From contig JAZPXN010000085.1 in NCBI GenBank assembly GCA_045543655.1, positions 422 through 64,421 of the forward strand: 64,000 nucleotides of DNA. The letters run 5' to 3'. A model generated the notes under the pieces. The model was not told the origin of the DNA. It was given only the letters and a program-made list of their open reading frames with translations, and ran no database searches. Below, in pieces: positions 21,995 to 26,763 of this stretch. Position 1 is the first letter of the stretch; every line of letters starts with the position of its first letter. The position numbers and the translations under genes are program-made. The stretch comes from Eubacteriales bacterium. Lineage in GTDB: Bacteria; Bacillota; Clostridia; Oscillospirales; UBA644.

Positions 21995-23437
21995 ATGGAA
22001 CGCTTGCTTCCCATCGGAAAAATCAAAACGAAGCCGTCGAAGGAGATCCCCTTTTCCCGCATCGGCATCGGATTCGAAAAACTGGACCGGGACGTTTTCG
22101 ATCCCGAAAAGGCTTACGATAAGGTTGCGGCTCTGGGGGTAAAATCCGCCCGCCTGCAATCGGGTTGGGCTCGCTGTGAGAAAGAAAATGGCGTCTATGA
22201 TTTCGCCTGGCTGGACGCGATCGTGGATCGGTTTCTGTCTCTTTCCATCGAGCCCTGGATCAATCTTTCCTACGGAAATCCCCTCTATACCGAATGTGCC
22301 CGTAAGTCCTTCGGCTCCGTGGGATGCCCTCCCATTAACTGCGAAGAGGCCATGAACGCCTGGATCGCTTACGTCAAGGCCGTCGTCCGTCATTTTGAGG
22401 GAAGAGTTACTTATTACGAAATTTGGAACGAGCCCGATTGCGATTACAGCTGGAAGCACGACGGCGAAGCCGTCCCCCGCCCCGACGCCGCCGAATACGG
22501 CGTCTTCTGCCGGGAGACCGCCAAGGCGATTCACGAGGTGAGCGCTACGGCAAAAACCATGGGCTTCGGGCTTTCAAATCTGGTGAAAAATCTGGATTTC
22601 GTGGCCGGCGCTTTTGATCAGGGGGCTCTGGAGCATCTGGACGCCGTCGCCTATCATTCCTATTCCGTGGACGATTTCAACCGTCTTCAGCGCATCGAGG
22701 ATCTGCGTACCCTTTGCCGTTTCCGGGGCAAAGAGGTGGATATCGTGCAGGGGGAGACCGGCTCCCAATCCCGTAGCGACGGTTGCGGCGCCATGCACGG
22801 CTTCCAATGGACGCCGGAATTGCAGGTCAAGCATCTTCTGCGGTGCATGACCGTGGATCTCTACGCCGACGTTCTGTTTACCTCTCACTTCACCACCGTG
22901 GATATGATCGAAGCTCTGCGGGGAGTTGTGGGAAACAAGGCTTCTTATTTGGATTACGGCTATTTCGGCGTGCTCGGCGCCGATTTTGACGAGGACGGCC
23001 ACTCCACCGGAGAATATACCCCCAAACCCTCCTATTACGCCCTGCAAAATATGGCGGCGGTCTTTCAAGGGGAATGGAAGCCATCCTTGCTTCCCATCTC
23101 CCGCCAGCGGTTGGGATCCCGGAGAGTCAATGGGGAAGATTGCAACGATCCCACAATGATGGGCTGCGGCTTTGTGCGCCCCGACGGTACGGCCCTTTAC
23201 GCCTATTGGAACGCCGTCCCCATGCTGACCCACACCTACCGGGGAACCGTTTCCTATTTCATTGACCGCTCCCTTCCCGTTCCCCGTCTGGTAAACCCTG
23301 CCGACGGCGCCGTATACGGGATTCCGGAAGGGATGATCGAAGCTCGTCCCGGCGGATTTTTACTGAAAAATCTCCCCGTCACCGATATTCCGCTGATGTT
23401 GATCTTCGGCGATTTCGCGGAGGTCGAGCCCCGATAA
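21995..23437 (+). CDS. Clan GH-A glycoside hydrolase (GH39/GH5-like), cytoplasmic
   Basis: Motifs GVYDFAWLD, YYEIWNEPD (acid/base), AYHSY, QGETG (nucleophile region) and PKPSYYA. No signal peptide. Confidence 0.75.
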   Translation: MERLLPIGKIKTKPSKEIPFSRIGIGFEKLDRDVFDPEKAYDKVAALGVKSARLQSGWARCEKENGVYDFAWLDAIVDRFLSLSIEPWINLSYGNPLYTECARKSFGSVGCPPINCEEAMNAWIAYVKAVVRHFEGRVTYYEIWNEPDCDYSWKHDGEAVPRPDAAEYGVFCRETAKAIHEVSATAKTMGFGLSNLVKNLDFVAGAFDQGALEHLDAVAYHSYSVDDFNRLQRIEDLRTLCRFRGKEVDIVQGETGSQSRSDGCGAMHGFQWTPELQVKHLLRCMTVDLYADVLFTSHFTTVDMIEALRGVVGNKASYLDYGYFGVLGADFDEDGHSTGEYTPKPSYYALQNMAAVFQGEWKPSLLPISRQRLGSRRVNGEDCNDPTMMGCGFVRPDGTALYAYWNAVPMLTHTYRGTVSYFIDRSLPVPRLVNPADGAVYGIPEGMIEARPGGFLLKNLPVTDIPLMLIFGDFAEVEPR

Positions 23438-23464
23438 CAGTACCTGCATTTTACGGTAAAACAA

Positions 23465-23497
23465 AGGACGGAGCATCCGCAAATGCTCCGTCCTATT
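23465..23497 (+). terminator. Terminator hairpin after the glycoside hydrolase
   Basis: AGGACGGAGCAT-CCGCAA-ATGCTCCGTCCT, a perfect 12-bp stem. Confidence 0.75.
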
Positions 23498-23544
23498 TGT
23501 ATCTTATTCTCTTCAAAAAAACAATCCGGCAACCCCCGGCAATA

Positions 23545-23570
23545 TTTCGCAGAGGTAGGTACTCTGCGAT
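23545..23570 (+). repeat. Left 26-bp inverted repeat (putative recombinase site)
   Basis: TTTCGCAGAGGTAGGTACTCTGCGAT is the exact reverse complement of 23814-23839. Confidence 0.95.
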
Positions 23571-23780
23571 TTTATCCTTTCCCCCGTAGTACGATTCCGG
23601 AAAACGACGGCAGATTTGACGGCGCATCCCGCACAACGCTTTCGAAATATCCGTTTGTTTCAAGGCATTCCCGACGGCAACGGGGACGGCGCAAAATAAA
23701 TAAAGACGCATTTTCCCCCTCTTGCGTCGGTTTAATAATCAAACTTTCTGTTAAATTTTGAAAAAGTCATAGAAAAAATG

Positions 23781-23809
23781 TTGCATTTTTCTCTATAATG
23801 TGGTAGAAT
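23781..23809 (+). promoter_or_regulatory. Sigma-A promoter inside the invertible segment
   Basis: TTGCAT-17 bp-TAGAAT with an extended -10 TG, ending 4 bp before the right inverted repeat. Confidence 0.7.
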
Positions 23810-23813
23810 AGTG

Positions 23814-23839
23814 ATCGCAGAGTACCTACCTCTGCGAAA
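23814..23839 (-). repeat. Right 26-bp inverted repeat (putative recombinase site)
   Basis: ATCGCAGAGTACCTACCTCTGCGAAA lies between the promoter and the RBS (GAGGAGG) of the 957-aa gene. Confidence 0.95.
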
Positions 23840-23868
23840 CAAAAATATCCTTATGAGGAGGAAAAGCA

Positions 23869-26742
23869 ATGCAAAAACACACGAAAAAAGCATTGATGCT
23901 CAGCGTTCTGTCTTTGATTCTCTGCGTATCCATGCTGGTCGGCACCACCTTCGCGTGGTTCACCGACTCCGTCACCACCGGTGTCAACGTTATTCAATCC
24001 GGCAATCTGGACATCGAATTGGAATATTCCAAGACGATGGCTGATGACGATTGGGATGACGCCAAAGACGCCACCGACCTGCTGAACCCCGCTGCCCGTT
24101 GGGAACCCGGCCACACCGAGGTCGTCTACCTTCGGATTACCAACGCAGGCGATCTTGCCCTGAAATATCAGTTCCTCATGAAAATTGAGAGTTCTGTTAT
24201 CGGCAAGAGCGTTCTTGGCAACGATATCGATCTTGCAGACTACTTGAAGTACGATATTGTTGACGTCACTGCTGCCTTTGAGAATCGTGCCGCCGCCCGC
24301 GCCGCCGTTGTGGATGGGAAAAACCTGATCGGCGAAAGCGTTTCCGGCGAAATGCTCCCCAAGGCTGCCCCCAGAACCCTCGCTCTTATCGTTTATATGC
24401 CTGAAACCGTGGGCAATGAGGCCAACTACCGCGGCGATGCTATCCCCACGATCAACGTTCTGTTCGACCTCTTTGCCACCCAGTATACTCATGAGTCCGA
24501 CTCCTTCAACAATCAGTACGATAAGGCTGCTCCCTGGACGGGCGACGTGGATACTCATTGGTACTTCGACGATCCTACGGCTACGGAATTCACCATTGAT
24601 TCTGCGGCCGAGCTTGCCGGTCTTGCGGCAATCGTCAACGGTACCGCTACCGCTCCTTCCACCACCTTCTCCCTGAGAAGCACCCCCGCCGTCGTTCAGG
24701 ACACCTTTGAAGGCAAGACCGTTTATCTTGGTGCGGACATTGACCTGAGAGAGCTCCCCTGGACTCCCATCGGCAGAACCGGTGCTACCACCACCGATTT
24801 CACCTATGCTTTCCGTGGGACCTTTGACGGCAAGAATCACACCGTTTCCAATCTCTACGTTGCCAACGAAGGTTGGGCCGGCCTCTTCGGTATCGCTTAT
24901 AAAGCAACCTTGAAGAACGTGAAGATTTCCAATGCCTCCATTCAGAGTAACCGCATGGCCGGTGCACTGGTTGGTCAGCTTTACGGCAGCATCGATAATT
25001 GCCACGTGGACGGTGCTGATATCATGGTCGTTCCCAATGCAGTTGGGGATTCCTATGACAATGGCGATAAGGTCGGCGGCATCGTCGGATGGCTCGGCGA
25101 CAACGGAAACAACCGCACCCTTACTAACTGCTCTGTGAAGAATGCTAAAATCGGTGCCTACCGTGATGTCGGCGGCATTGCCGGTTACGTCGCTTCTTCT
25201 ACTACCGTTTCCGGGAATGCCGTTGCCAACGTTCAGATTACCGTTGACCAGACTTCCTTCTTCTATGGTGAAAAGGATGTCAATGCCGGTTTGATTTACG
25301 GTAGAACCGGCGGTGCTATCAATGATGATAATACGAATAGCTCTGATGAAGAAAGCTCCATTGAAGCGACTTACAGCAAAGACGGCTTGACCCTGAAATC
25401 TGGGTCCGAGTATGAAGGAGCAATCCTTTATCTTGTTCCCGCAGATTACGACAAGACTACCGTGAACGTTCCTGAAGGCGTTACCACGATTGGTAATTAT
25501 GCATTTGCTTACAATAGCAATGTTGAAACCGTCACTCTGTCTTCTTCCGTGAGAGATCTTGGTCGCGGTTTTGATTCCAGTAGCGTTAAGAAGGTTGTCT
25601 TGAATGAAGGCCTTAAAGTTATTAGCAGCCGCGCATTTAGAAGCACTACTGCTCTTGAGGAGGTTGTAATCTCCTCCACCGTTACCGAGATTTCGGACAA
25701 TGCTTTCCAAAAGTCCAGCATCAAAGAAATTGTGATTCCTGCCAATGTGAAGACGGTTGGCGAAACTGCCTTCGGTGCTTCCTTGATTGAAAAGGTTACC
25801 TTTGAAGGCGATATTGCTATTCAGGGTTATGCATTCCGCGGCTGTCCCAAACTTCATACCGTGGTTATGAACGGTTATGACGTGACCTTCGTTGCGTCTA
25901 CCCTCAACGGCAGAAATTCCATGTGGTTCTGCAACGGTGAATCCAACAACCCCAACGTCAGTGATATCGATTTCTACGTAAAGAATGCGGTTGTTAAGGA
26001 AAGAGTTCTGACCGCAATGGGTGCCGAAAGAAACAACACCGATGTTTATATTGCAACTGAAAACGGTGGTTACTATGTTGATGCACAGGGCAACGCCCAT
26101 GCGTACGATGCAGAAACTCTGGTAGCTGCTTTGGAAGCGGGCAAGGGCGTTACTCTTCACGAAGATTCCAAAATCGATCCCGCCGGCATGAGCAATGCGT
26201 ACGGCACCACCGGGATCAACGTGAAGAACGGCCAGACCATCGACGGCGGCGGCAATATCCTTGATATCAAGGGCGCCGGCGGCACTTGGGACTCTGGGAT
26301 CAACACTACCGGTGGTCTGATTAAGAACATCACCGTTACCGGCTCCTTCCGTGGCATCTTTATCAATCACAATAGTGATCACTCCGAAAAGGTCGTTCTG
26401 GAAAACGTCATCATTGACGGTACCACCTACACCATCAGCTGTGATCAGGGTACCAATAATGGGCTTGAAGCCACCAATTGTACCTTTAACGGCTGGACTT
26501 CCTATGCCGCTACTCTCGGCGATGCGAAGTTTGTTGACTGCTCCTTCGGTGAAGGCAACGGTTACGCTTTCTGCCGTCCCTACGCTCCCACCGAATTCGT
26601 GGGCTGCGATTTCGAGGCTGGTTATACCGTTGATCCGAGAGCTAACGTAGTTTTTGAGAACTGCACCATTGGCGGCGTCGCTCTGACTGCCGGAAACGTT
26701 GCAGACCTCGTTACCGACATTGCAAAAGTCACCGTAAAATAA
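23869..26742 (+). CDS. Surface protein with a SipW-type signal peptide, TasA/camelysin-like N-terminus, GLUG-like beta-helix and BspA-type leucine-rich repeats
   Basis: N-terminus LVGTTFAWFTD....N....GNLD and YLRITNAGDLALKY. Middle region FRGTFDGKNHTVSNL, GLFG and VGGIVG. LRR_5-like repeats VPEGVTTIGNYAF, VTEISDNAF and IPANVKTVGETAF. Confidence 0.82.
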   Translation: MQKHTKKALMLSVLSLILCVSMLVGTTFAWFTDSVTTGVNVIQSGNLDIELEYSKTMADDDWDDAKDATDLLNPAARWEPGHTEVVYLRITNAGDLALKYQFLMKIESSVIGKSVLGNDIDLADYLKYDIVDVTAAFENRAAARAAVVDGKNLIGESVSGEMLPKAAPRTLALIVYMPETVGNEANYRGDAIPTINVLFDLFATQYTHESDSFNNQYDKAAPWTGDVDTHWYFDDPTATEFTIDSAAELAGLAAIVNGTATAPSTTFSLRSTPAVVQDTFEGKTVYLGADIDLRELPWTPIGRTGATTTDFTYAFRGTFDGKNHTVSNLYVANEGWAGLFGIAYKATLKNVKISNASIQSNRMAGALVGQLYGSIDNCHVDGADIMVVPNAVGDSYDNGDKVGGIVGWLGDNGNNRTLTNCSVKNAKIGAYRDVGGIAGYVASSTTVSGNAVANVQITVDQTSFFYGEKDVNAGLIYGRTGGAINDDNTNSSDEESSIEATYSKDGLTLKSGSEYEGAILYLVPADYDKTTVNVPEGVTTIGNYAFAYNSNVETVTLSSSVRDLGRGFDSSSVKKVVLNEGLKVISSRAFRSTTALEEVVISSTVTEISDNAFQKSSIKEIVIPANVKTVGETAFGASLIEKVTFEGDIAIQGYAFRGCPKLHTVVMNGYDVTFVASTLNGRNSMWFCNGESNNPNVSDIDFYVKNAVVKERVLTAMGAERNNTDVYIATENGGYYVDAQGNAHAYDAETLVAALEAGKGVTLHEDSKIDPAGMSNAYGTTGINVKNGQTIDGGGNILDIKGAGGTWDSGINTTGGLIKNITVTGSFRGIFINHNSDHSEKVVLENVIIDGTTYTISCDQGTNNGLEATNCTFNGWTSYAATLGDAKFVDCSFGEGNGYAFCRPYAPTEFVGCDFEAGYTVDPRANVVFENCTIGGVALTAGNVADLVTDIAKVTVK

Positions 26743-26763
26743 TTTCATCCGAAATGATTTTCG

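Follow-up and report, generated by a model that had tools for sequence, protein, structure and literature searches.

A 291-bp invertible promoter most probably switches a 957-aa protein on and off in the 64,000-nucleotide stretch of an Eubacteriales genome analysed here (the window), being flipped in trans by a 373-aa tyrosine recombinase encoded on another contig, C77. The switch itself is probably a miniature, lacking a recombinase, of a larger cassette, and expression of the 957-aa gene likely follows the orientation of the segment, as judged from the arrangement of sites, promoter and start codon. The genome (label G000) comprises 2.6 Mb in 98 contigs and is 94% complete.

The first-pass annotation of the window had described a pair of perfect 26-bp inverted repeats with a lox-like architecture, and both points hold. 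The repeats are exact reverse complements spaced 243 bp apart, each follows the pattern TCGCAGAG-N7-CTCTGCGA with palindromic 8-bp arms, and their asymmetric 7-bp cores lie in opposite orientation (Table 1). All four arms are perfect; scanning the window with this pattern gave two matches even at three mismatches, against a mean of 0.29 in shuffled sequence. Measured from site to site, the whole element is 291 bp long. Four GACGGC direct repeats, absent from the earlier annotation, lie in two pairs inside the segment, the first pair at offsets 59/60 and 72/73 from the promoter-distal end, as in most of the sister switches described below. They are likely arm-type sites for the N-terminal domain of the recombinase. 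The window had been reported to lack a recombinase, and it does: the best tblastn match to the C77 recombinase has an E value of 0.12, and the window's contig carries none of the genome's PF00589 or PF00239 matches.

Table 1. Features of the switch in front of the 957-aa gene and of NusG-linked switches elsewhere (window positions unless a locus is named)
Feature	Position	Strand	Remarks
Upstream glycoside hydrolase-like gene, PF01229	21995..23437	+	flank, outside switch
Hairpin, terminator-like on both strands	23465..23494		computed score
Left inverted repeat	23545..23570		site 23547-23569: 8-bp arm, core GTAGGTA 23555-23561, 8-bp arm
Invertible segment	23571..23813		243 bp between repeats; promoter towards gene (ON) in this assembly
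GACGGC direct repeats, first pair (23606, 23618)	23606..23623	+	sequence; sister comparison
GACGGC direct repeats, second pair (23673, 23685)	23673..23690	+	sequence; sister comparison
Predicted sigma-A-type promoter TTGCAT-17-TAGAAT, TG extension	23781..23809	+	ends 28 bases from right site's end
Right inverted repeat	23814..23839		site 23815-23837, core TACCTAC 23823-23829
Ribosome-binding site	23855..23861	+	sequence; outside invertible segment
957-aa protein	23869..26742	+	SipW-class signal peptide, ~200-aa N-terminal domain, BspA-type leucine-rich repeats 530-636
NusG-linked switches, two Lachnospiraceae genomes	L313:3137-3706, L314:3681-4252, L315:3572-4074, L350:556-1831, L261:1501-1837		miniature or full

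The promoter proposed in the first-pass annotation is found at its place, but it has only 8 of the 12 consensus bases, and a simple consensus scan does not list it. The scan instead gave an overlapping TAGAAA-18-TATAAT at 23770-23799, with one promoter found against 0.9 expected. Support for the predicted promoter comes from its positional conservation in the sister switches, since TTG and TGnTAnAAT are invariant columns across all 12 aligned switches. The ribosome-binding site and the ATG do sit outside the right site, as had been annotated. The hairpin beyond the left repeat likely ends the transcript of the upstream gene; in the OFF state the transcript of the inverted promoter would meet this hairpin and be stopped by it. 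An antisense open frame of 965 codons lies opposite the 957-aa gene (23851-26748, minus strand); similar frames lie over other paralogues and are likely an artefact of codon usage.

The 291-bp element exists in both orientations across samples. Eight of 24 listed public runs (X1-X8), all in the form of assembled contigs, were compared with the window at a likeness setting of 88, which is low enough to call for a warning about joints from other organisms. A search for the flipped form had been proposed, and public contigs do carry opposite-strand joints at the repeats with unchanged flanks (23543/23544/23570 at the left repeat, 23813/23839/23842 at the right). The flipped (OFF) form was present in X1, X2 and X4, that is in three of the first four runs and in three different studies, with joints exactly at the repeats. 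The 674-nt contig of X4 follows the plus strand from 23059 to 23544 (486 bases of left flank) and then the minus strand from 23839 to 23652, with 14 and 7 other letters, respectively. One X1 contig has the complete segment in reverse, continuing into 117 bases of the gene side, and X2 has the joint 23570/23813 at a depth of 2.2. The window's own (ON) form was found in X8, where a contig covering 23480-23627 on the plus strand crosses the left repeat, and weakly in X7, which reaches 18 bases past this repeat. Contigs of X3, X5 and X6 do not cover the switch and are therefore outside the orientation count. Likeness to the window is about 94-97% for the pieces from X4 and X1 and about 94-99% for the contigs overall, pointing to related strains. 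None of the eight runs contained both orientations, contigs being prone to drop rare forms.

The first-pass annotation had anticipated sister switches elsewhere in the genome. These were found: 12 small inverted site pairs and a large one. The small switches measure 291-307 bp and end 24-36 bases ahead of the start of a paralogous gene. All 12 solitary paralogues with a SipW-class signal carry such a switch, nine of them in the ON and three in the OFF orientation; the layout with the promoter inside and the start codon outside is conserved throughout, and no small switch has a recombinase nearby. Outer arms are exact in 25 of the 26 sites of the genome, and several inner arms are degenerate. 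Cores are identical within each of the 13 site pairs, with eight different cores between loci; as a control, among the matches listed, 3 of 119 chance outer-arm pairs from metagenomes agree over at least five inner bases.

Degenerate arms provide a hint at the crossover position. The inner arm ATCCGTGA occurs at the promoter-distal end in C24 (OFF), C60 (ON), C84 (ON) and C87 (OFF), and the direction of the core relative to the gene is constant in these four loci while the degenerate arm moves with the segment. As the inner arm travels with the segment and the core does not change direction, the crossover should lie outside the inner arm, which fits a crossover within the core. Near-identical elements are found in both orientations within one genome. 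The 12 small switches are referred to below as satellites. Six of them (C24, C27, C31, C60, C69 and C84) have the common core GTATGAA, so the core cannot be the sole address of a locus. These six might recombine between loci, swapping promoters or reshaping the chromosome. C24, C60 and C84 are close copies of one another.

In seven of the 12 satellite genes a contig end interrupts the conserved 5' part. Orphan gene bodies resembling the N-terminal domain of the targets start at contig ends in C6, C24, C62 and C91, therefore several of the cut genes presumably continue there. Hairpins of -14 to -27 kcal/mol stand beside all 13 elements, a figure without a shuffled control and suggestive at most. 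Dispersed palindromic repeats of REP- or MITE-like appearance were seen in C5, C8, C12, C28, C44, C45, C51, C66, C76 and C83. One family contains TCGCAGAG-N5-CTCGGATA beside longer hairpins, in a layout unrelated to that of the switches; matches to it were rejected as sister sites, being part of this different dispersed repeat.

The 13th site pair, on contig C77 (G000:C77:56015-57487), spans 1,473 bp and encloses the gene for the 373-aa tyrosine recombinase, which lies between the two GACGGC pairs. A trans-acting invertase had been implied by the first-pass annotation, and this candidate is indeed located on another contig, inside the same sites. A profile built from the 12 satellites alone matches C77 in two pieces (model positions 1-108 and 125-302) that flank the recombinase gene, therefore a satellite corresponds to the large element minus this gene. 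The C77 recombinase is likely the enzyme that flips the 12 satellites in trans, as suggested by the co-occurrence of its gene with the shared sites.

The C77 recombinase scores above the cut-offs of PF00589 and PF14659, and its nearest solved sequence is the Int protein 6en0 (E 4e-13). The catalytic residues of tyrosine recombinases are R-K-H-R-H-Y; by alignment they correspond to R206, K255, H317, R320, H343 and Y353, each conserved in 98% or more of the 82 relatives compared, and the reading frame is intact. The protein falls below the cut-offs of the FimB/FimE-type NCBIfam models of tyrosine-type DNA invertases (18 bits vs 221-222) and of XerC/XerD (TIGR02224/TIGR02225; 67 and 54 bits vs 335 and 330). 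In the structure model its first 65 residues (pLDDT 81) form three strands and a helix (E8-10, E16-24, E30-37, H40-57). Fold matches of this domain are weak and within the common range, both for a GCC-box domain (Z 5.1, rmsd 2.8, 53 residues aligned) and for the N-terminal domain of Tn916 Int (Z 4.5, rmsd 1.8, 49 aligned), and Foldseek returned no match for it at E 0.001. The genome has four PF00589 loci and one PF00239 locus, the latter a serine recombinase on C15. The three other PF00589 loci share 21-26% identity with the C77 enzyme and lack a site pair. For the recombinase gene no consensus promoter was found, and there is no excisionase-like gene among the cassette's open reading frames of at least 100 aa. 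The left site of the cassette forms, together with its flanks, a terminator-like hairpin of 16 pairs followed by T's on the recombinase strand (L003:1352-1388), which may end the recombinase transcript.

The cassette family was followed in a set of 80 loci from named GTDB genomes, mostly gut Clostridia (80 of 104), plus six loci from relatives (5 of 11 same-genus genomes). At 62 of the 80 uncut loci, inverted sites with the same core enclose the recombinase gene, 38 different cores being represented. Leaving out the genome's own locus and two duplicates, same-core bracketing remains in 59 of 77 loci. In a control with shuffled pairing, matches averaged 2.4 and never exceeded 9. The flanking cores are inverted in every pair found, and none is arranged for excision or integration between direct sites. 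A strict scan found no same-core pair in 18 of the 80 uncut loci; a looser scan of these 18 and two cut loci revealed pairs in two. Between matching flanks, the cassette is opposite in orientation in four of the six locus pairs compared, e.g., in L031 and L032, which are 99.7% identical over 1,448 bp. Two contigs, one of them from Extibacter muris, contain nothing but the element, which is what a break of the assembly at both repeats would produce. Among the cultured bacteria that carry the cassette are Blautia producta DSM 2950, Blautia celeris, Lachnoclostridium sp. An138 and E. muris.

The gene most frequently found next to the cassette is of the TetR family (30 of 85 loci, e.g., L007-L010, L014, L015, L018-L020, L024, L025 and L027-L035) and is often followed by a SipW-like peptidase gene, which suggests that the TetR neighbours are switched regulators of fibre operons. 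Across the 85 loci, the promoter side holds a TetR-like target in 17 cases and a SipW-like one in 13, the corresponding counts for the far side being 13 and 11; the neighbour profiles behind these counts were seeded from the same loci, and kin are not independent. Other neighbours encode large surface proteins. In 13 loci (L007, L014, L017, L018, L019, L025, L030, L031, L032, L035, L047, L051 and L087) a directly repeated third site with the same core stands some 32 or 85-110 bases past one end of the cassette. In the L031/L032 pair this third site remains with the flank of the target gene. Such a site could make a three-state switch or an excisable spacer; none of six third-site spacers checked has a consensus promoter.

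Same-core pairs without a recombinase gene were found in seven other genomes, by following pattern hits in 36 selected loci. One genome, G099, has three miniatures of 503-572 bp with promoter and repeats in front of genes with a NusG domain, and in one of them (L313) the NusG-domain gene is followed by a polysaccharide biosynthesis gene. The NusG-linked switches resemble the invertible capsule promoters of Bacteroides with their UpxY proteins. Each of the genomes G117, G102, G061, G047, G002 and G186 has one recombinase-less pair, of 211-463 bp. GACGGY repeats are present in G099, G117, G102 and G061 and were not seen in G047, G002 and G186. Six of the seven genomes encode a close relative of the recombinase; the exception is G186 (100% complete by markers, 80 contigs), in which the best match to the enzyme has an E value of 5.6e-6. 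Neither a promoter nor GACGGY repeats were found in its 372-bp same-core pair (L359:3949-4320), which may be served by a different enzyme.

The number of satellites in G000 stands out in these sampled searches, with 16 strict sites against 8, 4, 4 and 4 in the next best genomes. The exact satellite pattern, which has 11 matches in the genome itself, has none in 40 relatives. The satellite profile gave no full-length match in 77 recombinase-carrying genomes, with 45-47 of about 500-2,800 candidates scored per genome; as it missed satellites later caught by the pattern, this is no evidence of absence. A site-plus-repeat pattern matched at most three times per genome in the same 77 genomes and at most twice in each of 400 genomes of the order (36 genomes with matches vs about 26 for the reversed control). 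A single-site pattern matched in 8 of 400 genomes of the class vs 12 for the control and was uninformative except for G186. Among the matches listed, the 119 metagenome pairs examined contained chance matches and no true satellites.

The 957-aa protein passes TIGR04088 (25.8 vs a cut-off of 19) and also matches PF12389 and PF13306. The five complete genes among the 12 paralogues have in common the TasA/camelysin-like N-terminal domain of about 200 residues and largely diverge beyond it; the same domain occurs in the 736-aa product of an operon next to the C77 cassette. A model of the target (pLDDT 70, built from 7 sequences) aligns with the TasA fibre 8aur (Z 7.3, rmsd 3.2, 137 residues), a match that ranks third among Ig-like folds, is tied with glycosidase domains and is not decisive. 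The C77 operon (L103:1641-9819) codes for two SipW-like peptidases and several proteins of 188-736 aa with a SipW signal or a similar one. One peptidase passes TIGR02228 and fails the equivalog model of Bacillus SipW (83 vs 190); the second belongs to PF10502. A 222-aa product of the operon has a C-terminal sortase-like motif, recognised by eye, and a membrane tail.

A fixed TTGAAT-17-TATAAT promoter (L003:1305-1277) is located between the C77 cassette and the first gene of the operon. The cassette was considered as a global on/off switch of the fibre operon, and this idea was dropped because the fixed promoter lies outside the cassette. Since the operon has a promoter of its own, the cassette is probably not its plain on/off switch and may rather add to its expression or modulate it. 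In the satellites there is no room for such a fixed promoter between site and start codon.

Several other explanations of these data can be considered. The invertible promoter may be real and yet flipped by another enzyme, the C77 recombinase serving its own cassette only. The genome does offer candidates in its three other tyrosine recombinases and the C15 serine recombinase (four PF00589 loci and one PF00239 locus in all, counting C77), or the gene may be missing from the 94% complete assembly. The similar pair in G186, a genome without a close relative of the C77 enzyme, agrees with this explanation, as does the position of the first GACGGC pair, about 10 bases nearer to the site in the satellites than in the cassette. 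RecV of Clostridioides difficile is likewise known to account for some switches only (accessible part of PMC5903667). We nevertheless consider a different enzyme improbable, as only the C77 gene lies between these arms, the arms accompany its family at 59 of 77 other loci and a close relative is present in six of seven other genomes with recombinase-less pairs. Somewhat less probable still is that the switches flipped in the past and are now locked in each strain, or that they flip too rarely for phase variation. Each run did show one orientation, and with contigs from related strains (about 94-99% alike) fixed differences between strains could be responsible, but contigs also lose minority forms. 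Several inner arms are degenerate and the recombinase gene lacks a consensus promoter; on the other hand, its frame and catalytic residues are intact, the outer arms are exact in all sites but one, the window's four arms are perfect and near-identical elements occur in both orientations within one genome.

The first-pass annotation had itself named a MITE and a transcription factor operator as alternatives. That we are dealing with MITE-like mobile elements or repressor operators, the two orientations being old insertions or assembly errors, is largely refuted and very hard to credit. A recombinase-less miniature of a recombinase-carrying element is formally similar to a non-autonomous element, the genome does contain other families of dispersed repeats, and 7 of the 12 satellites are near contig ends. 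However, there is no target duplication at 12 of the 13 elements (the remaining one has a 4-base AATT match), and all copies occupy an equivalent place before the start codons of paralogous genes. Cores co-vary within pairs, unlike an operator, and in three independent studies the same locus is reversed exactly between the repeats with its flanks unchanged.

By analogy, this system would unite the principle of Mpi or RecV, a single enzyme acting on many switches, with that of Hin, an enzyme encoded within the segment it inverts. The fimS element of E. coli is a promoter-only segment that controls a surface structure and is flipped by FimB and FimE, small tyrosine recombinases encoded next to it. 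Being about 300 bp long (accessible part of PMC5903667), it resembles the switch described here in size, in its promoter-only content and in its surface structure target. Unlike FimB and FimE, the C77 enzyme is encoded at a distance, has an extra N-terminal domain and scores far lower with invertase models. In lambda and Tn916 integrases the N-terminal domain binds arm-type sites. Integrases of the Tn916/Tn1549 type and lambda Int resemble the C77 system in several respects: the best solved match is an Int protein (6en0), the core sites have two arms and an overlap of 7 bp, direct repeats lie apart from them, and the N-terminal domain, weakly matched in fold, may likewise consist of three strands and a helix. 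In contrast to these integrases, its sites are inverted and local, a configuration leading to inversion and not to excision, so it would work as an invertase. Hin uses serine chemistry and an internal enhancer. In the Salmonella H segment the recombinase gene and an outward promoter lie inside the invertible segment, and an 844-bp fimbrial segment of Providencia stuartii encloses a recombinase ORF (accessible part of PMC5903667). The C77 cassette also carries its recombinase gene within and differs from Hin in recombinase class; the same part of that source describes no gene-less miniatures for either segment.

Mpi of Bacteroides fragilis is a single recombinase that acts on some 13 scattered invertible regions governing surface structures, and RecV of C. 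difficile is a tyrosine recombinase acting in trans on cwpV, flg and other small intergenic switches, the repeats of which are mostly unrelated to each other (both from the accessible part of PMC5903667). Our system is similar to Mpi in that one enzyme would serve many scattered switches of surface genes. Mpi is a serine recombinase, whereas the C77 enzyme belongs to the integrase type of tyrosine recombinases and is encoded within its own copy of the invertible element, and its sites differ from those of Mpi by locus-specific cores and internal direct repeats. With RecV it shares the clostridial tyrosine recombinase, several small intergenic switches and a surface-protein target; by description, RecV switches differ from the 13 elements found here, all of which have one site consensus, one layout and paralogous targets. 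Inverton group 139 of Clostridia, with 200-260-bp intergenic invertons and a tyrosine recombinase (invertase group 35), is also similar, but nearly all of its invertons have an invertase nearby according to the accessible part of PMC11892184 (Jin et al.), compared to none of our 12 satellites; by this description the two differ. In the literature searched, with most subscription papers outside reach, we found no description of a system in which one recombinase-carrying hub serves recombinase-less satellites, and none is given in the accessible parts of PMC11602134 and bioRxiv 10.64898/2026.10.01.755998.

We propose that the recombinase recognises the four 8-bp arms, with strand exchange taking place in the 7-8-bp core. 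It would synapse the two sites of one element, assisted by the internal repeats, so that the promoter is turned towards or away from the gene. The N-terminal domain would bind the GACGGC repeats in the way integrases use arm-type sites, thus favouring local synapsis, and the core may serve as an address of the locus because only identical cores would recombine. Satellites could derive from a large element that lost its recombinase gene, and could have spread afterwards as the 5' end of the target gene was duplicated along with them. The targets may be processed by the SipW peptidases of the C77 operon and represent alternative adhesive subunits of a TasA-type fibre or matrix; if their switches flip independently, surface display would therefore be combinatorial. 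Taken as a whole, this amounts to a hub-and-satellite network, in which a domesticated integrase would flip its own cassette and a dozen gene-less miniatures by means of arm repeats and core addresses, allowing the alternative adhesive subunits of a SipW/TasA-type fibre to be combined in up to 2^12 ways, with miniaturisation being recurrent, as in the NusG paralogues of Lachnospiraceae. We see this full picture as evenly poised between right and wrong.

Phase variation of surface proteins at multiple loci by one enzyme is well described for Bacteroides and C. difficile; here it would extend to commensal gut Clostridia, for which read-based surveys list few invertons, with a median of three per genome in Firmicutes_A (accessible part of PMC11892184). 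As a candidate enzyme can now be named along with its site consensus, internal repeats and target genes, the link between them can be tested by one plasmid assay. With 38 natural cores on a single arm sequence, the recombinase family might also become a source of orthogonal inversion switches in synthetic biology. The comparison of cassette and satellites also suggests how such networks originate, namely by deletion of the recombinase gene from a self-contained cassette and copying of the remainder with the 5' end of the target. If the proposal is true, the NusG-linked miniatures of Lachnospiraceae would be a Gram-positive parallel to the capsule switches of Bacteroides, and one distant recombinase would let cells mix and match their surface proteins.
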